Shown: one piece after another, positions 6,643-52,171 of the stretch
Layout of the letters: each line of letters starts with the position of its first letter
Numbering within the stretch: the stretch's first letter is position 1
Assembly: GCA_964506005.1 (NCBI GenBank)
Contig: CAZDLX010000003.1
Coordinates: 1-52,360 of the forward strand
Reading direction: 5' to 3'
DNA length: 52,360 nt
Source: an uncultured Anaerolineae bacterium
GTDB lineage: Bacteria > Chloroflexota > Anaerolineae > Aggregatilineales > UBA3940
Notes under the pieces: generated by a model
Database searches by the model: none
What the model was told of the DNA's origin: nothing
What the model saw: only the letters and a program-made list of their open reading frames with translations
Program-made: the position numbers and the translations under genes

Positions 6643-8277
6643 ATGAAGAAAGTAGCCATCGATTTCGGAACAACAAATACCGTCGTGGCCGTGTGGCGCG
6701 AGGCTACCGGCGTGCCCGAAACGGTGCGCCTGGCCGGGCTTGGCGCGAACGGGGCCTCGGGGCAGGCCTGGCTCGTACCGTCGCGTCTCTACGTGCAGGA
6801 CGGTGCGGCGAGCAACGGCGCAGGCATCATTGCCGGGCAGGCAGTTGCCGGGGGTGGTTACGACGTGCAGGGCGACGAGCGCTACTTCGCCTCGTTCAAG
6901 CGTGGGATTGCCGCACGCAGCCGCCCGCTTGCCCGCGTGATCGACGGGGCGGAATGGGACGAGGCGCGCGCGGGTGAGGCATTTCTGCGGGCGGTGCTCG
7001 CCGCCGTGCGCGAGCAGGAAGGCGGCATCGACGAGCTGATCTTCACCGTACCGGTGCAGAGCTTCGAGCGCTACCTGCAGTGGCTGCGCGACGAAACCGC
7101 GCTCGTCGGAGGTGAACGGGTGCAGCGCGTGCGCGTCGTGGACGAGAGCACCGCGGCGGCGCTTGGCTACGACGTGCGCACACCGGGCGAGCTGATTCTT
7201 GTCGTGGACTTCGGCGGCGGCACGCTCGACGTGTCGCTGGTGCGGATGCCGGTCGCCGAGGAGGGCAGCGGTGTTGTGCTGCAGGACGACAACCGCCAAC
7301 CCCGCCGGGCGGCGCGGGGCGGCGACGTCGAGGCACGGGTGATTGCCAAGGCGGGGCGCGTGCTCGGCGGTGACGACGTGGACCACTGGCTGCTGGAGGA
7401 GCTTCTGGAGCGTACCGGCGCCAGCCGTGCAGAGGTCGGGGACGCGTACAGCCAGCTCAAGCTGGCCTGCGAGGCGGCCAAGATCCGGCTTTCCGAGCAC
7501 GAGTCCGCGGAGGTCAGCGTGTTCGACCCCGACACGTTCCGCACGTACCGCGCCACGTTCACGCGCACCCAGCTTGAAGACCTGCTCGACCGCCGGGGGT
7601 TTTTCGGCGCGTTCCAGCAGACGGTGAACAAGGTGCTGCGGGCAGCGCGGGCGCGGGGCATCTTCCCCGAGGACATCGGCGCGGTACTGCTCATCGGCGG
7701 CACGTCGCAGCTTCCGTCGGTGCGGCGGCTGGTCCGCACACAGTTCGGTGCGGAGCGCGTCAGCGAGGACCGGCCCTTCGAGGCGGTGGCGCATGGCGCG
7801 CTGAAGCTGGCCGCCGGCATGGGGCTCGATGACTTCCTGTATCACGCTTACGGCGTGCGCCACCTGAGCCCGGTGACGGGGCGGCACGAGTGGGAGGAGA
7901 TCATCCCGGCGGGGACGCGCTACCCGCTGGCGGAGCCGCCGGTGCTGATCCTCACCGCGTCTCGCGACGGGCAGGAGGCGCTGGAGCTCGTCATCGGCGA
8001 GGTGGAGGAGAGCGCGGGCGGCGTCGCCGAGGTCATGTTTGGCGGGCGGGCGATCCTGATGGTCGACGGCGCGATCGAGCTGCGGCAGGTCATCCCGCTC
8101 AACGACGAAGACGGCTCGCGGACCGTTGCGCAGCTCGACCCGCCGGGTAAGGCGGGTGAAGACCGCGTCGAAGTCATCTTCAGCGTCGACGCCAACCGCA
8201 CGCTGCGCGTCACCGTGACCGACCTGCTGACCCACCGGGTGCTGCTCGAGAACGCGCCGGTGGTCGAACTGCGCTGA
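6643..8277 (+). CDS. non-canonical Hsp70 family protein (short, no helical lid)
   Basis: 544 aa. Actin-fold ATPase motifs are present: VAIDFGTTNTVVAVW, VVDFGGGTLDVSLV, VLLIGGTSQLPSVRRLV. The protein ends after a beta-rich segment (VEVIFSVDANRTLRVTVTDLLTHRVL), about 90-100 aa shorter than DnaK. Confidence 0.85.
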   Translation: MKKVAIDFGTTNTVVAVWREATGVPETVRLAGLGANGASGQAWLVPSRLYVQDGAASNGAGIIAGQAVAGGGYDVQGDERYFASFKRGIAARSRPLARVIDGAEWDEARAGEAFLRAVLAAVREQEGGIDELIFTVPVQSFERYLQWLRDETALVGGERVQRVRVVDESTAAALGYDVRTPGELILVVDFGGGTLDVSLVRMPVAEEGSGVVLQDDNRQPRRAARGGDVEARVIAKAGRVLGGDDVDHWLLEELLERTGASRAEVGDAYSQLKLACEAAKIRLSEHESAEVSVFDPDTFRTYRATFTRTQLEDLLDRRGFFGAFQQTVNKVLRAARARGIFPEDIGAVLLIGGTSQLPSVRRLVRTQFGAERVSEDRPFEAVAHGALKLAAGMGLDDFLYHAYGVRHLSPVTGRHEWEEIIPAGTRYPLAEPPVLILTASRDGQEALELVIGEVEESAGGVAEVMFGGRAILMVDGAIELRQVIPLNDEDGSRTVAQLDPPGKAGEDRVEVIFSVDANRTLRVTVTDLLTHRVLLENAPVVELR

Positions 8278-25439: not shown

Positions 25440-25513
25440 AATCGCTATCCGCCGGGCCGGGGATTGGGGTACAATGGGCTCAGGGCCTGTTACCTGCTAG
25501 AGTGGAATACGTG

Positions 25514-25831
25514 ATGGCCGAACAAACCGAGAGTACCGCGCTGCGCATCGTCCGCGCGCCGTTCTTCCTGCTGAGCGTGGCGCTCAGCCTGCTGCCGCTG
25601 CTTGCGCTGTTTGCCTCGGTCAGCATCGGGGCGTGGTTCGACGACGTGCTTACGTGGCTGGGTTACGAGCAGCGTCCGCGCTGGCTGCCTGCCGTGCTCG
25701 GCGTGCTGAGCTACGCGGGCCTGGGTATCGCGGCCCCGGCCTTTCTCGGCAACCTGCTGATCGGCTGGCCGGGGGCGGTCGCCGGCCCCGTGCTGGCGCT
25801 GGCGCTCATCGCCGTGCTCGGCCGCTGGTAG
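25514..25831 (+). CDS. small hypothetical membrane protein
   Basis: About 105 aa with three hydrophobic segments (FFLLSVALSLLPLLALFASV, LPAVLGVLSYAGLGIAAPAFL, VAGPVLALALIAVLG). No homology recognised. The start is uncertain: GTG 25502 or ATG 25514. Confidence 0.45.
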   Translation: MAEQTESTALRIVRAPFFLLSVALSLLPLLALFASVSIGAWFDDVLTWLGYEQRPRWLPAVLGVLSYAGLGIAAPAFLGNLLIGWPGAVAGPVLALALIAVLGRW

Positions 25832-25907: not shown

Positions 25908-27503
25908 TTATCTGGCCAGGGGTCCGGCTTCGCGCACGGCAGCGCTGAGCACATCGGCGTACTGCCTGGCATTCTCCGCAAAGAGGTTGGCCAGCTCCTG
26001 CGCCTTTGTGTCGTAGGCTTCCTTATCCTCCCACATCGCACGCGGGTTGAGCACGTCGTCCGGCACGCCGGGTACCTGCAGCGGCACGTGGAGGCCGAAG
26101 ATAGGATCTTCACGCGTTTCGACTTCCGCCAGCGCGCCTTCGAGGACCGCCCGGATCATCGCCCGCGTGTAGCGCAGCTCGATGCGGTTCCCCACGCCGT
26201 AGGGCCCGCCGACCCAGCCCGTGTTGACCAGCCACACACTTGCCCCATGCTCGGCGATCTTCTCGCCGAGCAGGTCTGCATACCTGCGCGGGTGCAGCGG
26301 CAGGAAAGGCGCACCGAAGCCGGCGCTGAATGTTGCCTTCGGCTCTGAGACGCCGCGCTCGGTGCCGGCCACCTTCGCCGTGTAGCCGCTCATGAAGTGG
26401 TACATGGCCTGATCACGCGTGAGGCGGCTGATGGGCGGCAGCACGCCGAACGCATCCGCGGTCAGGAAGAGTATGTTGTTGGGGTGGCCTGCCACGCCTG
26501 TGCGTGTGGCGTTCGGAATGTGGCTTATCGGGTACGATGCGCGGGTGTTCTCCGTCAGCGTGTCGTCGTCCAGATCGATCCGGCGGCTGTTCATGTGCAT
26601 TCCGACGTTCTCCAGGATGGTCCCGAAGCGCCGGGTCGTCTGGAAGATCTCCGGCTCGCCGGTGGGTGAGAGCCGGATGACCTTCGCATAGCAGCCGCCC
26701 TCGAAGTTGAAGATGCCGTCGTCGCTCCAGCCATGCTCGTCGTCGCCGATGAGCGTCCGCGTCGAGTCAGAGGACAGCGTCGTCTTGCCCGTGCCGGACA
26801 GCCCGAAGAACAGGGCGACGTCACCCTTGTCACCCTCGTTCGCCGAGCAGTGCATCGGCAGCACGCCTCGCTTCGGCAGATAGTAGTTCATGACACTGAA
26901 GATCGACTTCTTGATCTCGCCTGCATAGGCGGTGCCACCGATGATCACCACCTTCTCGGCGAAGTTGATAAGCACGAACGCCGGGGAGTTCGTGCCGTCC
27001 CGATCCGGGTTCGCGTGGAAGCTTGGCGCCTGGATGACCGTGAAATCGGGCTCAAAGCCGACCAGTTCCTCGTCGGGCACGCGGATGAACATGTTGCGGG
27101 CGAACAGGTTGTGCCAGGCCGTTTCGGTGATAATCCGCACCGAGAGCCGGTGCGCCGGGTCGGCGCCGGCGTAGGCGTTCTGCACGAAGGCGTTCTTGCC
27201 CTGGAAATACGCGAGCAGGTTGCGGTACAGGTCGTCGAACTGCTCGATGCTGAAAGGCCGGTTGATGTCCCCCCACCAGATGTCGTCACGCGTGGTTGGC
27301 TCGTGGACGATGAAGCGGTCCTGCGGCGACCGCCCGGTATGGTCACCCGTGCCGACGACCAGCGGCCCGAGATGTGCCACGTAGCCCTCCTGCCGCCGGA
27401 TTGCCTGCTCGTAAAGCTGCGGCGTGTGAAGCTGCCAGTAAATTGTGTTCAGGTTCCGGAACCCTAGAGCTTCCATTTCAGGGTGCGTTTGCAGGATTTC
27501 CAT
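25908..27503 (-). CDS. pckA: phosphoenolpyruvate carboxykinase (ATP)
   Basis: Motifs [13 protein letters not shown] (P-loop), LIGDDEHGW and ...[16 protein letters not shown]. The start was chosen at MEILQTHPE (ATG 27503), preceded by GGAGGAAAG. The track start is at 27527. Confidence 0.95.
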
Positions 27504-27710
27504 CTTTCCTCCGTACTGGCACGACAAAATGCGGGGTAACGGACCACCGCGCCGGGTCGCTCTTGATTCTAGCGCGCGACGCGGGCTCTATACAGTGAAA
27601 TACGCAGCCGTGTGATGGGGCGTCACGACGACTGCGCATTTCATGGGGTGAGGATAGGGATGAGAACTCTTCTTGGAGAGTCAACTGTATCCTAGCACAT
27701 TCTTCGATAT

Positions 27711-27745
27711 AGTTTCGTGAAGTTTCATGAAAAGTTTGTGAATTC
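27711..27745. promoter_or_regulatory. array of alternating TTC/GAA half-sites with 10-bp periodicity
   Basis: AGTTTCGTGA AGTTTCATGA AAAGTTTGTGAATTC reads as TTC-gt-GAA-gt-TTC-at-GAA-aagt-TTg-t-GAA-TTC. It lies in the only AT-rich stretch of the pckA / CHAT-island divergent intergenic region, about 65-100 nt upstream of the predicted + strand -10 box. Confidence 0.35.
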
Positions 27746-27784
27746 AGCCTGCCGGGGGGCGCGTTCCGCCCGTTGTCGATCCAC

Positions 27785-27814
27785 TTCACCCGGCGGAAGG
27801 GCCTGTGCTACACT
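27785..27814 (+). promoter_or_regulatory. candidate promoter of the CHAT-island operon
   Basis: TTCACC, an 18-nt spacer, then TGcTACACT (extended -10), about 36 nt upstream of ATG 27850. RBS is GGAAGGGTAGG. Confidence 0.35.
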
Positions 27815-27849
27815 ACATACAGCGGCCAACTGGTTGGAAGGGTAGGCAG

Positions 27850-29130
27850 ATGGAGCGTGACACACGGCGCGACCCGGGCGGTTACTTCATCATCGCGCAG
27901 TGGTACGACACCGTCCGGAGTGCGCTGCTCATGCTGGAGGAGCAGGGCGGCCAGGGGTGGTGGTATCTGATCGTGCGCGTGTGGCGCGAGGAAGCACTGG
28001 TCTGCCGGTTCATCGATCTGGTCCGCCGGCTTGAGATCGAGGGCCCGCTCCTGCTCGACGAAAAGCTGGACTCGCTCGGCCCGCCGCTTGAGCCGGCGAT
28101 CTACCTGGACGCCAAAATCGGCGACGACACGGCAGTCCGGCTCGCCAGGGAGAGCGAAGGCGGGCGTGCGGTGGTGGTGAACTTGCACCCGCCGAACACA
28201 ACACAGGCGGGCACGCTGCCGGGCATCGACGTGGTACGCATCGTCGATACGCGACGTTCGCGCGGGCTCGCCTCAACCGAGATTCCCGAAGCCGTCTTCG
28301 ATCTGGCGCGGGGGCTTCCAACCGGCACGGAGCCGCCCGAACAGCGCCCGCTCACGCCCGGCAGCATCCCTCCGATGGGTGCGCCGCAACCTGGGCCAGT
28401 TGCACCCTCAGCGCCGGTACCCGGTCCATCCCGCACTACGGATGTGCCCCGCATGGAGCCGCGCGAAGAGGAGCTTGAGGAAACCGCGCACCCCGACGCG
28501 GGCGAGATCGTCTACGGTGATGAGGTTCACGGGGACAAAGTCACGGCGGGCAACATCACGAACAGCATGGGCGTCGCCATCGGGCCGGGCGCGCAGACGC
28601 ACGTCTACCTCAACTCGCCCGAGCCGGAGACGCGCGAGCAGCCCCGCCGCTTCGAGGCGGCCTTCCCGAAGGAGTGCCACCTCGGCGCAGAGCAGAAGCT
28701 GTGGGTCGCCGTTATGCTGCCCGACGCGGAGTCGCCGTTTGGCGAGCGCGCGGACGACCACGACATCGCCTCGACGGATGAGGTCGGCGTGCCGATGCCG
28801 GTCGATGGGCGGACAGGCCAGCTCAAAGCCGTCGACGTGGAGGTGACGGTCACGGCGACGGGCTTCCGGGTAGAGGGAGCCAGCACGAAGAAGCTGACCG
28901 TGTGGCCCGACGGCAGACTCGCCAAGCGCTGGTTCCAGCTCGAGCCGGACGCGCCCGGCGAGCAGGAGATCCACCTCGAAGTGTGCATCGACGGGCGCCT
29001 GCTGCAGGAGATCGACCTTATCACCACCGTCTACGAGCCGCGGAAGAAGGCGCGCAGCCTGCTGAACCTGTCGCTGACGATCGCGTCGTTCGGGCTGACG
29101 TTCACATTTGCAGCCGGAGCGGGCACGTGA
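27850..29130 (+). CDS. hypothetical multidomain protein, partner of the downstream CHAT protease
   Basis: 426 aa from ATG 27850. The parts are an unknown ~165-aa N-domain, a Pro-rich linker, the repeat motif EIVYGDEVHGDKVTAGNITNSMGVAIGPGAQTHV (28504-28605), a beta-rich C-domain (FEAAFPKECHLGAEQKLWVAV...EIHLEVCIDGRLLQEIDLITTVYE) and the hydrophobic tail SLLNLSLTIASFGLTFTFAAGAGT. No family recognised. Confidence 0.7.
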   Translation: MERDTRRDPGGYFIIAQWYDTVRSALLMLEEQGGQGWWYLIVRVWREEALVCRFIDLVRRLEIEGPLLLDEKLDSLGPPLEPAIYLDAKIGDDTAVRLARESEGGRAVVVNLHPPNTTQAGTLPGIDVVRIVDTRRSRGLASTEIPEAVFDLARGLPTGTEPPEQRPLTPGSIPPMGAPQPGPVAPSAPVPGPSRTTDVPRMEPREEELEETAHPDAGEIVYGDEVHGDKVTAGNITNSMGVAIGPGAQTHVYLNSPEPETREQPRRFEAAFPKECHLGAEQKLWVAVMLPDAESPFGERADDHDIASTDEVGVPMPVDGRTGQLKAVDVEVTVTATGFRVEGASTKKLTVWPDGRLAKRWFQLEPDAPGEQEIHLEVCIDGRLLQEIDLITTVYEPRKKARSLLNLSLTIASFGLTFTFAAGAGT

Positions 29131-29172
29131 GCCCGGTCTTATCCGCTGATTGCCAAGCAAAGGGGGAGCGAC

Positions 29173-30819
29173 GTGATCGATTACCTGGATTTTGAAGTGC
29201 TCATCAGCGAGACGGCTGACGGCTACCGGGCGCGCGTCCTCGACTCGCCGGGCGGGCAGGTCAGCACAACCTTTGCTGTACCATTCACAAAGGCTGAGAT
29301 CACGGCGTTCTACCAGCGGCTTGACAGGCCGCGCTACGATGACGGCAACCTCGCGGCGGCGCGGGACTACGGCGGCAGGCTGTTCGACGCCGTCTTTACC
29401 GGCGAGATGCTCGGTACGCTGCGAGCCAGCCTGCTGCGCGCAACAACGGAGAACAAGGGTCTGCGCTTCCGGCTGCGCTTTGACGACGAAGCAGCGCCCG
29501 TCGCGCAGCTTCCCTGGGAAGCATTGTACTACGCGCCTCTGGACCGCTTCTTTGCGCTCTCGGCCTACACACCGCTGACACGTTTCCTGGAGATGCCGGA
29601 GCAGGTCGAGCCGCTGCCGCTGGAGCCGCCTCTCCGGATGCTGGTCATGGTCTCCAGCCCCGGCGACCTGGACCAGCTGGACGTCGACATGGAGTGGTCG
29701 GTCATCAACGACGCGCTGGACCATCTGGAGGACGCAGGCTACGTCAGCGTCGAGCGCATGGACACGGCGACGCTCTCCGCGCTGCAGGAGAAGCTCAGCG
29801 AGGGGACGTACCACATCTTCCACTACATCGGGCATGGCGGCTTCGACGAGAACACCCAGACAGGCGAGGTGATCTTCGAGACGGAGGACGAGCATGCCCG
29901 CCCGGTCTCGGGCAGCGAGCTCGGCACTATGCTGCACGACCACCGCAGCCTGCGCCTTGTCATGCTCAACGCCTGTGTCTCGGGTAAGGGATCGCACGTG
30001 AGCCAGTTCCGCGGGGTGGCGCAGCGGCTGGTGCAGCAGGGCCTGCCGGCAGTCGTCGCGATGCAGTCGAGCGTATCAGATCTGGCGGCAATTGCGCTGT
30101 CCAGCCGGCTGTACGCGGCGCTGGCCTCCGGCTTTCCGGTTGACGCGGCGCTGGCGGAGGGCCGCAAGGCGGTCTTCGCGCTCGGCGACAACATCGAGTG
30201 GGCGAACCCGGTGCTGTACCTGCGCGCCCCCGATGCCCGCGTGTTCGACGTGGCGCTCGACGAAGCCGGGCTTGCCCAGCCGGACGAGCGTGTCGTCGGC
30301 GTGCCGCTCAGCGCCGAGGAGAGCGTCGCCAGCCCGACGACCCGGGAACCGGTGGAACAGGCCCAGCCCGACGACCCGCGCCGCCCCCGGGTGGACAGCG
30401 TGTACGGCGACCTCGTCGAGGGCGACAAGATCATCCACGGAGACGAGGTCGGCGGGGACAAGATCACCGTTGGCAACATCACGGGGAGCAGCGGCATCGC
30501 CATCGGGCGGGGCGCACGCGCCAGCGTATCGGGTTCCGGCGGAGACTCGCCCTTCCAGCTGGTGCGCGAGAAGCTGCCTGAGCTGGGCATCGACGAGAGC
30601 GCGCAGGAGGAAGCCGAGTTCGCCGTCCGCCAGATCGAGAAGCAGGACGCCTCCGCCGAACCGGACATCGACCGGATCGACCGCTGGCTCGGCGTGCTGG
30701 AGGAAGTCGCGCCCGCGGCGCTGGAACTGCTTGTCGACGCCGTGGCCAACCCCGGCGCGGCCGTCAGCGCCGGAATGAGGCTGGCGATCAAGACGTGGCG
30801 GCGGGCGCGCAAGCCGTAG
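29173..30819 (+). CDS. CHAT-domain (caspase-like) protease with C-terminal repeat motif and helical tail
   Basis: 548 aa, GTG start after AAAGGGGGAG. A His/Cys dyad sits in the expected context: YHIFHYIGHGGF (His codon 29833-29835) and LRLVMLNACVSG (Cys codon 29974-29976). Further along are ...LPAVVAMQ...AALAEGRKA, the motif DSVYGDLVEGDKIIHGDEVGGDKITVGNITGSSGIAIGRGARASV (30391-30528), and a ~95-aa helical tail. Confidence 0.85.
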   Translation: MIDYLDFEVLISETADGYRARVLDSPGGQVSTTFAVPFTKAEITAFYQRLDRPRYDDGNLAAARDYGGRLFDAVFTGEMLGTLRASLLRATTENKGLRFRLRFDDEAAPVAQLPWEALYYAPLDRFFALSAYTPLTRFLEMPEQVEPLPLEPPLRMLVMVSSPGDLDQLDVDMEWSVINDALDHLEDAGYVSVERMDTATLSALQEKLSEGTYHIFHYIGHGGFDENTQTGEVIFETEDEHARPVSGSELGTMLHDHRSLRLVMLNACVSGKGSHVSQFRGVAQRLVQQGLPAVVAMQSSVSDLAAIALSSRLYAALASGFPVDAALAEGRKAVFALGDNIEWANPVLYLRAPDARVFDVALDEAGLAQPDERVVGVPLSAEESVASPTTREPVEQAQPDDPRRPRVDSVYGDLVEGDKIIHGDEVGGDKITVGNITGSSGIAIGRGARASVSGSGGDSPFQLVREKLPELGIDESAQEEAEFAVRQIEKQDASAEPDIDRIDRWLGVLEEVAPAALELLVDAVANPGAAVSAGMRLAIKTWRRARKP

Positions 30820-30828
30820 CTGCGTCTC

Positions 30829-30858
30829 TTGTATGTGGAAAAAAGCGCATGTTATAAT
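30829..30858 (+). promoter_or_regulatory. sigma-70-type promoter of yebC
   Basis: TTGTAT (30829-30834), an 18-nt spacer, then TATAAT (30853-30858), about 85 nt upstream of ATG 30944. Confidence 0.5.
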
Positions 30859-30943
30859 GCAACGTCCGTAAAACGAAAAGGCAGTCGTGGGGTGCGGTAC
30901 TCACGCCGCGCACAGGGCATGGCACCATAGAAGGGTTGGGAAT

Positions 30944-31696
30944 ATGAGCGGTCACAGCAAATGGTCTACCATTAAGCGCAAGAAGGCGGCCAACGACGCG
31001 AAGCGCGGCAAGGTCTTTACGCGGCTCTCGCGCGAGATTACTATTGCGGCACGCGCTGGAGGCGACCCCGAATCAAATGCGGCGTTGGGCCTGGCTATCG
31101 ACAAGGCCAAGGCCGAGAACATGCCGAAGGACAACATCGACCGGGCGATCAAGCGCGGCACCGGCGAGCTGAAAGACGCCGAGGACATTGCGGAAATCCT
31201 TTACGAGGCATACGGGCCGCAGGGTGTGGCGCTGATTATTGAGGTTGCGACGGACAACCGCAACCGCACGCTGGCGGACATCAAGCACCGCCTGAACAAA
31301 GTAGGCGGCAGCATGGCGGAGCCCGGCTCGGTCGCCTGGCAGTTCGAGCAGAAGGGCTACATCGCCGTGGCTGCGGACGGGCAGGACTACGACGAGATCT
31401 TCATGCTGGCTGCCGAGGCAGGCGCAGAGGATGTCTCCGAGGACGATGGCCTGTTTGAGATATTCACCCCGCGAGACGCGCTGCACACCGTGTTCTCGGC
31501 GCTCAAGGAGGCGGGGATACAGGTTGAAGAGGCGCGCCTCGACTGGGTGCCGAAGACCGAGATCGAGCTGGAAGCCGGCCCGGCGATGAAGGTGATGAAC
31601 CTCATCGAGGAGCTGGAGGACGGCGACGACACGCAGATGGTGTACTCAAATCTGCGCGTGACAGACGAGTTGATGGCAGCCTTTGAAGAAGGCTAG
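30944..31696 (+). CDS. yebC: YebC/PmpR family DNA-binding transcriptional regulator
   Basis: MSGHSKWSTIKRKKAANDAKRGKVFTRLSREI... is the family's hallmark N-terminus. ATG 30944 is in frame with the track ORF 30887..31696. Confidence 0.9.
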   Translation: MSGHSKWSTIKRKKAANDAKRGKVFTRLSREITIAARAGGDPESNAALGLAIDKAKAENMPKDNIDRAIKRGTGELKDAEDIAEILYEAYGPQGVALIIEVATDNRNRTLADIKHRLNKVGGSMAEPGSVAWQFEQKGYIAVAADGQDYDEIFMLAAEAGAEDVSEDDGLFEIFTPRDALHTVFSALKEAGIQVEEARLDWVPKTEIELEAGPAMKVMNLIEELEDGDDTQMVYSNLRVTDELMAAFEEG

Positions 31697-51157: not shown

Positions 51158-51586
51158 CTACGCTTCTTCCAGCCGCTCCAGAAGCTGGGAGTAGCTGCGC
51201 AGGATGTCGCTCACGCTGACGATGCCAGCGAGGTCGCCGCCGCGCATCACGGGCAGCGCGCCAAACTTGTACTCGCGCAGCATGTCCGCGGCGAGCGCCG
51301 CAGGCGCGTCGGCGTCGATGGTCAGCGGGTCGGGCGTCATGCACGCCTCGACCGGGATGTTCTCCAGCAGGGCCGCGTCGTCGCTGCGCTCGTGGAGCAC
51401 GAACGGCGAGTTGACGGCAAGGCGCACGTCGCGGTCGCTCAGCACGCCGAGGAGCCGCCCTTCGTCGTCGCAGACCGGAAGCTGCCGGCAGTGGCGCTCC
51501 TTCATCAGGCGCACCGCCTCGCCGAGCGGTGTGTCGGGCCCGACACAGCACGGGTCCGGCGTCATGATATCCTCAACCGTCAGCAT
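51158..51586 (-). CDS. CBS domain-containing protein
   Basis: A tandem CBS pair (VEDIMTPDP...TPLGEAVRLMKERHCRQLPVCDDEGRLLGVLSDRDV; ACMTPDPLTI...AADMLREYKFGALPVMRGGDLAGIVSVSDIL). ATG 51586 is preferred because GGAGG lies 5 nt upstream. The track start is GTG 51592. Confidence 0.8.
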   Translation of the reverse strand: MLTVEDIMTPDPCCVGPDTPLGEAVRLMKERHCRQLPVCDDEGRLLGVLSDRDVRLAVNSPFVLHERSDDAALLENIPVEACMTPDPLTIDADAPAALAADMLREYKFGALPVMRGGDLAGIVSVSDILRSYSQLLERLEEA

Positions 51587-51616
51587 TTCCACCTCCGGGC
51601 GACCCGGTATGCCAGG

Positions 51617-52171
51617 CTATGCCAGCGCGAGCTGCTCCCGCGCGCAGGCTGCGCCGCGGTCTACAGCCTCGTAGTTCATCGGCAGCATGTCCTTGCGGTG
51701 CGCCGGGATGTGCGCCTCCAGCGCCTGCTTGAGCGTATCGATGGTCAGGACGGGCCGCGCGGCAAGCGCCGCGCCCAGAAGGATCAGGTTTGCGACGCGC
51801 AGGCTGCCGAGCTCGTCCGCAATGCCGGTGGCGGACACGTTCAGCACCGTGATATCGGTGCGCTCGCACACATCCGGCACCAGGCTGGAGTTCACGACGA
51901 GCAGCCCACCCGGCGCGACGAGCGGTGCGTACTTGTCAAACGAGGGCCGGTTGAAGACCAGAGCGCTCGCCGGATGCCGGACAACCGGCGAGCCGATGGG
52001 CTTGTCGCTGATGACGACGAAGCAGTGTGCAGTACCGCCGCGCATCTCGGGCCCGTACGAGGGGATCCAGGTGACCTCTTTACCCGCGTCGAGCGCGGCG
52101 TAGGCCAGAAGCTGGCCGCCGAACATCACGCCCTGGCCTCCAAACCCTGCAAACAGAAACTCTTCTTGCAT
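51617..52171 (-). CDS. 2-oxoacid:ferredoxin oxidoreductase, gamma subunit
   Basis: 184 aa: FAGFGGQGVMFGGQLLAYAALDAGKEVTWIPSYGPEMRGGTAHCFVVIS is typical of POR/KOR gamma subunits. Confidence 0.85.
   Translation of the reverse strand: MQEEFLFAGFGGQGVMFGGQLLAYAALDAGKEVTWIPSYGPEMRGGTAHCFVVISDKPIGSPVVRHPASALVFNRPSFDKYAPLVAPGGLLVVNSSLVPDVCERTDITVLNVSATGIADELGSLRVANLILLGAALAARPVLTIDTLKQALEAHIPAHRKDMLPMNYEAVDRGAACAREQLALA

Follow-up and report, generated by a model that had tools for sequence, protein, structure and literature searches.

The stretch of DNA analyzed here (the window; 52,360 nucleotides) derives from an uncultured Anaerolineae bacterium (contig CAZDLX010000003.1, positions 1 to 52,360 of the forward strand; GenBank assembly GCA_964506005.1). 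Between pckA and yebC it carries two co-directional genes, here termed ORF1 and ORF2, whose products may together form a regulated protease. ORF1 is predicted to encode a divergent CBS pair (Bateman module) followed by an immunoglobulin (Ig)-like β-sandwich and a β-hairpin-like tail, and ORF2 a caspase-like protease of the CHAT type with a TCAD2-like C-terminus; a Gly/Asp/Lys/Val repeat occurs in both proteins (Table 1). An initial annotation of the window had described the two genes, their 42-nt gap, and the flanking genes pckA and yebC, and all of these were borne out. The start assigned to ORF1 is that used by the database proteins P0001 and P0002. Relative to locus L013, the closest distinct relative, both genes are under purifying selection (ratio of nonsynonymous to synonymous substitution rates, dN/dS, of 0.23 for ORF1 and 0.11 for ORF2), and are therefore real coding genes rather than chance open reading frames. 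They probably constitute one operon; the spacer measures 3–41 nt at orthologous loci.

Domain architecture of the two proteins

ORF2 has the appearance of a catalytically competent CHAT protease with an intact His/Cys dyad. Residues 87–334 match the Pfam CHAT family (PF12770) with an E value of 1.7e-26 and 93.8 bits (cut-off 24). His221 and Cys268 are invariant in four orthologues (alignment A2). In the alignment with the CHAT protein 8tl0, the closest solved sequence, FHYIGHG pairs with HFIGHG and LNAC with LNAC. The Pfam match, the invariance of the dyad, and the 8tl0 alignment all uphold the earlier placement of the catalytic His in FHYIGHGGF and the Cys in VMLNACVSG. The module is under strong purifying selection (dN/dS 0.08 versus L013).

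More than 500 proteins share approximately 50% identity with the CHAT module and carry different C-terminal domains, including FGE-sulfatase, WD40, TPR, Kelch, Big_2, SH3, PD40, TIR, and others; only about a dozen proteins match ORF2 over its full length. By sequence, these CHAT proteins follow a pattern of constant effector and variable C-terminus. CHAT-module distances among the syntenic orthologues (0.44–0.58) are similar to their distances from more than 100 paralogues with other C-termini (0.45–0.52; P0021–P0129), suggesting a star-like radiation or an exchange of modules. A neighbor-joining tree of the CHAT modules did not resolve orthology.

The C-terminal assignment of ORF2 rests on aligned homologues. 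Its last 93 residues align colinearly with 13 of these, seven of which match Pfam TCAD2 (PF19971; best E value 3e-28); the syntenic orthologues at L007 and L001 match at 3e-12 and 6e-4, while the window copy itself has no match to this family even at E values up to 10. A profile of the repeat plus TCAD2 region retrieved nothing meaningful from PDB sequences, and thus no related solved structure; no description of TCAD2 was found in the literature searched. The disordered linker that precedes the repeat contains a perfect 16-nt direct, tandem-like repeat (CCAGCCCGACGACCCG, 30329–30344 and 30363–30378). The L013 orthologue is nine residues shorter overall (539 versus 548), and the linker may therefore gain and lose short segments.

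ORF1 is less readily classified. Scans of the protein or its halves against Pfam, NCBIfam, and PADLOC returned nothing except a DUF7363 match of the sandwich below the cut-off (E 2e-4). An AlphaFold2 model built on the family alignment contains two confident modules, residues 11–155 (predicted local distance difference test score, pLDDT, 80–90) and 260–396 (pLDDT >90). Foldseek returned generic Ig-like matches for the full model and detected the CBS pair only once the N-terminal domain was modelled alone. The isolated domain (pLDDT 85, predicted template modeling score 0.77) displays a β-α-β-β-α fold repeated twice, and all of its top 50 Foldseek matches in the PDB are CBS pairs, aligned over 116–146 columns of the 140-residue model and including MgtE, CBS-CP12, CNNM, AcuB, and IMPDH. 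A family profile of 33 N-domain sequences (alignment A3) reaches CBS proteins among PDB sequences down to E values of 1e-7 and cross-matches a canonical CBS protein encoded elsewhere in the window (E 2e-4); P0201, a relative carrying the ORF1-type N-domain, matches Pfam CBS at 7e-6. The canonical CBS-pair gene (51161–51616, minus strand; Pfam CBS 4e-33) overlaps a 156-residue plus-strand open reading frame (51204–51674), which is the one favored by a heuristic based on G + C content at third codon positions (GC3).

The CBS module of ORF1 carries a WWxLVV motif and evolves rapidly, with a dN/dS of 0.48 versus L013, against 0.08 for the sandwich, 0.08 for CHAT, 0.04 for PckA, and 0.09 for YebC. 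Such a value is expected of a sensing surface or of relaxed constraint. CBS pairs are classical ligand-sensing modules, best known for responding to adenylates, metabolic state, and energy charge.

The second module of ORF1 gave generic Ig-like, MG, and CARDB matches only in Foldseek. It is followed by a short tail without a single nonsynonymous change versus L013, for which the AlphaFold2 confidence is low (residues 400–426). In the last 22 or so residues, hydrophobic side-chains alternate with Ser, Thr, Lys, Gln, or Asn; among 25 family members checked, Lys, Arg, Gln, or Asn occupies alternate positions, the β-type hydrophobic moment exceeds the α-type in most, and hydrophobicity is mostly under the range of transmembrane helices. 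We read the tail as an amphipathic β-hairpin and not a membrane anchor. A transmembrane anchor was ruled out by the charged or polar alternate positions and the low hydrophobicity, and a membrane-spanning β-hairpin is unlikely given strands of only approximately seven residues.

These assignments revise the initial annotation, in which the upstream protein was of unknown family and no sensor was present: by profile and fold, ORF1 begins with a CBS pair, and its DUF7363-like sandwich and β-hairpin tail are likewise recognizable. The repeat common to both proteins and the TCAD2-like C-terminus of ORF2 had also been overlooked.

Table 1. Coordinates of the gene pair, its predicted features, and the flanking genes in the window
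Feature	Positions	Strand	Description
pckA	25908–27527	−	Upstream flanking gene
pckA/ORF1 divergent intergenic region	27528–27849	+	Presumed promoter region of the pair; lower G + C (0.57–0.59)
ORF1	27850–29130	+	426 residues from ATG; CBS pair, linker with repeat, Ig-like sandwich, β-hairpin tail
CBS pair (Bateman module)	27880–28314	+	ORF1 residues 11–155; divergent, fast-evolving; AlphaFold2, Foldseek, profile
Pro-rich disordered linker	28315–28617	+	ORF1 residues 156–256; pLDDT <50; length and sequence vary in alignment A1
Gly/Asp/Lys/Val repeat	28504–28605	+	ORF1 residues 219–252; IVYGDEVHGDKVTAGNITNSMGVAIGPGAQTHV; BLASTP
Ig-like β-sandwich, DUF7363-like	28618–29049	+	ORF1 residues 257–400; pLDDT >90
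Amphipathic β-hairpin-like tail	29050–29127	+	ORF1 residues 401–426; LNLSLTIASFGLTFTFAAGAGT; kept in all family members
Intergenic spacer	29131–29172	+	42 nt; good Shine-Dalgarno sequence AAGGGGGAG
ORF2	29173–30819	+	548 residues, GTG start; CHAT protease, linker, repeat, TCAD2-like domain
CHAT caspase-like protease module	29173–30237	+	ORF2 residues 1–355; Pfam CHAT match
His221 codon	29833–29835	+	FHYIGHGGF
Cys268 codon	29974–29976	+	VMLNACVSG
Variable acidic/Pro-rich linker	30238–30387	+	ORF2 residues 356–405; variable in alignment A2
Gly/Asp/Lys/Val repeat	30388–30537	+	ORF2 residues 406–455; contains GDLVEGDKIIHGDEVGGDKITVGNITGSSGIAIGRGARASV
α-Helical TCAD2-like domain	30538–30816	+	ORF2 residues 456–548; transitive alignment
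yebC	30944–31696	+	Downstream flanking gene; followed by ruvC, a DUF1385 gene, and a GNAT gene

A shared repeat and conserved adjacency

The repeat of ORF1 (residues 219–252) aligns with residues 419–452 of ORF2 over 34 positions with 62% identity (BLASTP E 4e-10), and the two genes are 76% identical over the corresponding 99 nt. Within the window the motif is confined to ORF1 and ORF2. Of 129 proteins checked, ORF1 family members and CHAT-TCAD2 orthologues have it; for the remaining 109 CHAT relatives there were just two chance matches, elsewhere in the protein. Across eight independent lineages only, cognate repeats are more alike than non-cognate ones (p = 0.0047; 189 of 40320 permutations give as high a value). 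The style of the repeat shifts between lineages, in both partners together: GDKVTAGNITNSMGVAIGPGA in ORF1 and GDKITVGNITGSSGIAIGRGA in ORF2 of the window, SVVSVGDGTTINV (partner gene) and SVVSVGDGTTITV (downstream gene) at L020, VNVAGGDIVTN and LTVAGGDIVEG at L015, and GDLVAGDKRVEGDEIHGDK and GDLVSGDKVIGGDEVHGDK at L001. The AlphaFold2 monomer leaves the repeat disordered, which would fit a segment that folds only upon association.

The association extends to gene order. An ORF1 homologue is directly followed by a CHAT orthologue, with gaps of 3–42 nt, at window/L018, L013, L001, L004/L019, L005, L007, L011, L002, L006, and L014. Single-chain fusions also exist: of 20 multidomain proteins with a CBS-like N-domain that were scanned, six end in CHAT (P0181, P0201, P0207, P0243, P0255, and P0262, all cluster representatives), 10 in TPR, and one in TIR. 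In P0255, colinearity with ORF1 spans N-domain, linker, and sandwich (hhalign probability 97.7%, E 1.9e-12), after which the chain continues into CHAT. Conserved adjacency, fusions, and the co-varying repeat together support a functional tie between ORF1 and ORF2.

Domains of ORF1 also occur in a wider set of architectures. The 79 multidomain proteins carrying an ORF1 domain contain TIR (26), CHAT (11), TPR (11), protein kinase (5), FGE-sulfatase (4), EAD7 (4), TCAD9 (3), and SEFIR (3) domains; fused NB-ARC and caspase domains were also observed. The repeat-plus-helical module is likewise found following EAD7 and, by itself, in small proteins. Conflict systems of multicellular bacteria use this TCAD2, DUF7363-like, and EAD vocabulary (PMC7159879, PMC8195603); neither article mentions a CBS domain.

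Two further observations concern the CBS-like domain. In P0157, P0170, and P0178, which combine a CBS-like N-domain with TPR, a Gly/Asp/Val repeat of this type follows the N-domain (e.g., KGDVVGGDKITVGDIMGTKGVAIG), and a cassette of CBS-like domain plus repeat is therefore reused outside the pair. The CBS-like domain also occurs alone in many small proteins (P0163–P0208; 150–190 residues), with a conserved TTRG motif and a basic C-terminal extension (…LAGxYxxIPxxGxLSRRR…).

Inheritance of the locus

ORF1 is rare, with nine matches among 5.8 billion proteins and about 22 full-length cluster representatives. All recovered loci belong to metagenome-assembled genomes (MAGs) or metagenomes of Anaerolineae or Chloroflexi, and carry the pair in the same slot. 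The gene order DsbH-like, pckA, pair, yebC, ruvC, DUF1385, GNAT is kept in distant Anaerolineae MAGs: yebC and ruvC lie directly downstream at L001, L004/L019, L005, and L007, together with the DUF1385 and GNAT genes at L001, L004/L019, and L007. Upstream, the DsbH-like gene, a small open reading frame, and pckA are found at L004/L019, and the first two at L007; L011 retains yebC and L002 retains pckA. The flanking proteins are 60–85% identical to those of the window, compared with 34–41% for full-length ORF1 and 41–52% for CHAT. Since the slot is kept while identities fall below those of the flanks, the pair is old, vertically inherited, and fast-evolving.

The pair had previously been described as an island inserted between housekeeping genes, a view that does not survive. 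Its composition is that of the host (GC3 of 0.84 for ORF1 and 0.87 for ORF2, against 0.80–0.92 for the neighbors), the slot is occupied in distant relatives, and no ORF1 relatives were found in plasmid or phage collections. The intergenic flanks of the pair contain no long direct or inverted repeats, and there is no tRNA in the window, in agreement with the initial annotation on the latter point. Kept synteny at 60–85% flank identity, neighbor-like GC3, and the lack of flanking repeats, tRNA, and plasmid or phage matches rule out a mobile defence island.

The claim that the pair has its own candidate promoter likewise found no support in a consensus scan of 27400–31100, in which neither a σ70-like promoter nor a terminator was detected. 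By eye, an extended −10-like element (TGCTACACT) and a ribosome-binding site (GGAAGGG) can be seen upstream of ORF1. An Rfam scan of the pckA/ORF1 intergenic region gave no match.

Relation to known systems and possible function

Of the systems described so far, the EACC1-caspase two-gene system comes nearest, sharing gene order and logic with the pair; the pair does not belong to it. In the model published for this "System 4" (Kaur, Burroughs, Iyer & Aravind 2020), a sensor would trigger the protease, and its C-terminal part would be freed by auto-proteolysis (PMC7159879). Both arrangements comprise co-directional genes, with a constant non-enzymatic partner at the 5′ side and, at the 3′ side, an N-terminal caspase-superfamily peptidase joined to a variable C-terminal module. 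However, the partner here lacks EACC1 (no match to ORF1 in Pfam, NCBIfam, or PADLOC) and its single, Gly-patch-bearing transmembrane helix, and the protease is a CHAT one, scoring 13.7 bits with the NCBIfam model caspase_w_EACC1 (NF047832; cut-off 140). Membership fails because the EACC1 domain is missing and the caspase subfamily model is not matched at its cut-off. A co-varying shared repeat and a fixed, vertically inherited Anaerolineae locus further distinguish the pair.

The repeat invites comparison with BASS/NLR pairs, in which matched motifs occur in adjacent genes, one possibly with a CHAT effector, in filamentous bacteria including Chloroflexi (Dyrka et al. 2020, 10.1101/2020.01.06.895854). 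As in those, a short, β-prone motif rich in Gly, Asn, Val, and Ile is present in two adjacent genes and cognate copies match. In contrast to BASS/NLR pairs, there is no NLR/STAND partner and no NTPase domain in either protein; the motif is internal, preceding the sandwich in ORF1 and TCAD2 in ORF2, rather than at a C-terminus and an N-terminus; and it abounds in Asp and Lys, residues that BASS motifs avoid. A homotypic adaptor logic is likewise shared with the vWA-MoxR ternary conflict systems (PMC7159879, PMC8195603): the ORF2 C-terminus is TCAD2-like, the ORF1 sandwich recurs in TIR-TCAD9, TCAD9-NB-ARC, and EAD7 proteins, and the repeat occurs next to EAD7. No MoxR, vWA, VMAP, or iSTAND gene was found within approximately 8 kb at L001, L008, and L015, nor among the window genes scanned, the farther of which were not all covered.

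SAVED-CHAT, TPR-CHAT (Craspase), and gasdermin-associated CHAT proteases also use CHAT, with the same dyad, as the output of a sensor. None of them accommodates the pair. PADLOC matches ORF2 only through its CHAT core (positions 102–286 of the 498-position SAVED_CHAT model) and there is no SAVED domain; no TPR is present and no CRISPR or Cas gene lies nearby; and the predicted folds in ORF1 are those of a CBS pair and an Ig-like sandwich, not of a gasdermin. The best NCBIfam match of ORF2 is the HetF model (E 7.5e-19); at 67.5 bits against an equivalog cut-off of 1200 this reflects the CHAT core only, and HetF identity was rejected. In CBS-pair enzymes and channels (IMPDH, CBS, AMPK γ, MgtE, CNNM, archaeal site-2 protease), a tandem CBS module joined to or next to a catalytic module likewise serves as an allosteric ligand sensor and dimerization unit, but the module of ORF1 is very divergent and is proposed to regulate a caspase-like protease in trans, an arrangement for which no description was found in the literature searched. 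The earlier statement that the pair matches no described system thus holds insofar as ORF1 has no PADLOC match and ORF2 matches only via its CHAT core; the implication that nothing is comparable was too strong, given the conflict-system domains (PMC7159879). What is new here is the coupling of CBS to CHAT (and to TIR and TPR), a repeat that co-evolves in both partners, and a locus that is fixed and vertically inherited.

We favor, with a probability of about one half, the reading that the pair is a Bateman-regulated caspase-like switch of the conflict or cell-death class, vertically inherited at a fixed site in filamentous Chloroflexota (Anaerolineae). Through homotypic docking, the shared repeat would tether the protease to ORF1, much as effector-associated domains (EADs) or BASS motifs do. 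The fast-evolving CBS pair would sense an adenosine-type ligand or a change caused by an invader and shift the oligomerization of ORF1, which would cluster the CHAT domains and activate them by proximity, as with other caspase-like proteases. The active protease might then cut the disordered linkers, freeing its own repeat-TCAD2 part, and/or cleave ORF1 or cellular proteins, with growth arrest or death of the affected cell within the filament as the outcome. Precedents for these steps are the EAD principle and the EACC1-caspase model of auto-proteolysis (PMC7159879; PMC8195603) and matched motifs in adjacent genes, including CHAT (10.1101/2020.01.06.895854).

It is tempting to extend this scheme to an NLR-free device in which the Bateman sensor, responding to a nucleotide or metabolite, gates the protease via the co-evolving β-repeat by templated, amyloid- or solenoid-like co-assembly, and in which the invariant ORF1 tail and the released repeat-TCAD2 form the executing assemblies. 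The locus would then be a fixed, vertically inherited cell-suicide circuit by which single cells of a Chloroflexi filament die in response to metabolic state or infection, and the CBS-like module a general sensor or adaptor, not recognized before, for TIR, CHAT, and TPR proteins. We regard this extended version as improbable.

Several observations weigh against the switch. Fixed synteny among housekeeping genes without mobile elements is atypical for defence genes. The slot also varies in content. In the majority state, which is spread across the deepest splits, ORF1 is adjacent to a CHAT-repeat-TCAD2 gene. In a second, ORF1 is accompanied by a CHAT-less repeat-TCAD2 protein of 157–233 residues (L015/L016, L020, L021, and L003), and in a third, seen at L008–L010 in an Aggregatilineales lineage common in digesters, CHAT-repeat-TCAD2 occurs without ORF1. 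Each of ORF1 and CHAT is missing at some loci, so neither is obligatory; because of the CHAT-less partners, the protease is not essential to the role of ORF1 and TCAD2, and such separable parts limit confidence in any single mechanism. ORF1 homologues without a protease had been named in the initial annotation as a finding that would speak against the pairing; they occur at these four loci, alongside CHAT-adjacent homologues in about ten lineages. Further, the CBS pair in the window diverges too far for a Pfam match, and the canonical ribose-phosphate motif, G-h-h-T/S-x-x-D, is not evident by eye in the N-domain alignment; the pair may have turned into a pure interaction module. The sample behind the co-variation test is small, and an earlier six-pair matrix was undecided. 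AlphaFold2 gives no structure for the repeat or the tail. The DNA identity of the repeat is about that predicted from amino acid identity and GC3/codon bias (our own estimate), and the 99-nt match was accordingly rejected as proof of recent gene conversion. Finally, we infer ligand binding, docking, cleavage, and phenotype alike from computational evidence.

The strict vertical inheritance raises the question of whether the pair serves the cell rather than its defence. A lineage-specific housekeeping or developmental regulator, in which a HetF-like CHAT protease is tuned by adenylate or metabolic state via the CBS pair and controls filament growth, division, or stress responses in Anaerolineae, would account for a single, stable copy at every locus found, in one slot among the core genes pckA, yebC, and ruvC, with host-like composition and without mobile elements or plasmid or phage copies. 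It would also suit the classical role of CBS pairs in sensing energy charge and the rank of the HetF model among the NCBIfam matches. That match is confined to the CHAT core and far below its cut-off, however. The variation of the slot argues against an essential housekeeping role, since each component has been lost in some lineage and none is essential; moreover, the pair outpaces its neighbors (36–52% versus 60–85% identity, with a dN/dS of 0.48 in the CBS module), and its domains recur with TIR, SEFIR, NB-ARC, EAD7, and TCAD9, the vocabulary of conflict systems. We consider this account unlikely, though it deserves to be taken seriously.

The initial annotation named ORF1 as the best candidate for a substrate, sensor, or pro-toxin of the protease. 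The tie to the protease stands, but substrate or pro-toxin is a possible and not the best-supported role. In such a model CHAT would cut the ORF1 linker, and the sandwich plus tail would assemble into a toxic membrane or amyloid-like structure, by analogy with gasdermin-protease pairs. The long disordered linker between two folded modules and the repeat in both proteins (…GDEVHGDK…), equally a possible common cleavage site, are compatible with this, as is the tail, perfectly kept versus L013 and alternating hydrophobic with Ser/Thr residues as in β-strand assemblies. Nevertheless, ORF1 has no gasdermin-like fold and only generic Ig-like matches in its C-domain, its tail strands are, by sequence reasoning, too short for a bilayer, and it persists at four loci without a CHAT domain. 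Fusions of the CBS module to CHAT suggest regulation rather than a passive substrate, and the island premise of the model was wrong; we find it rather doubtful. The constant presence of repeat-TCAD2 beside yebC, the sole part found at every syntenic locus readable in that region, suggests yet another possibility, namely that ORF1 plus repeat-TCAD2 is the core and CHAT a later, dispensable addition from the numerous Chloroflexi CHAT paralogues, or even that the genes are mere neighbors sharing a type of low-complexity linker. Syntenic CHAT modules being no nearer to each other than to the paralogues would agree with an addition, and similar repeats behind the CBS-like domain of unrelated TPR proteins such as P0157 with a generic linker. 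Yet the CHAT form is the majority state across the deepest splits, its dyad and module are under strong purifying selection, independent CBS-like plus CHAT fusions exist, and the co-variation of cognate repeats speaks against a generic linker, so that this explanation seems very improbable.

If the Bateman-regulated switch is correct, bacterial caspase-like proteases would have the CBS module as a further input device besides SAVED, TPR, STAND, and EACC1, and the pair would offer a compact two-protein system for studying how short matched β-repeats couple sensor and effector without an NLR. A fixed position, vertical inheritance, and natural variants without CHAT or partner are unusual among candidate immune or cell-death modules, and the locus variants form a comparative series for asking whether such systems can be domesticated in the filamentous bacteria dominating anaerobic digesters. 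Few full-length members of the family are known, all of them from uncultured Chloroflexi.

Some variant loci have features of their own. At L008–L010 the gap between pckA and CHAT (7561–8000) is merely 440 bp, and tblastn found no ORF1 remnant across the locus; ORF1 thus appears cleanly lost or never present there. At L003 (10640–19142), from an Anaerolineae MAG, a polyphosphate-metabolism cluster separates the ORF1-like gene from the CHAT-less repeat-TCAD2 gene. It comprises an α/β hydrolase, CYTH-CHAD, and two PPK2 genes, as well as open reading frames of 735 residues, reading like PPK1, and 452 residues, reading like a phosphoesterase. In an Armatimonadota MAG (L012, 8001–14661), a CHAT paralogue with 40% identity and no TCAD2 precedes a 1649-residue NB-ARC protein with Ig-like repeats, among PIN, ParE, and RES toxin–antitoxin genes, a classical defence-island context unlike that of the window.

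The farther neighbors of the pair in the window are OpcA, a 6-phosphogluconolactonase-type gene, a DsbH-like thioredoxin, a methyltransferase, an Ldh/Mdh-family dehydrogenase, and a metallophosphoesterase. An open reading frame for a hydrophobic protein of 109 residues (25502–25831, plus strand), located between pckA and the DsbH-like gene, matches no Pfam family and is kept in synteny, with 54–59% identity, at L004, L007, and L008.

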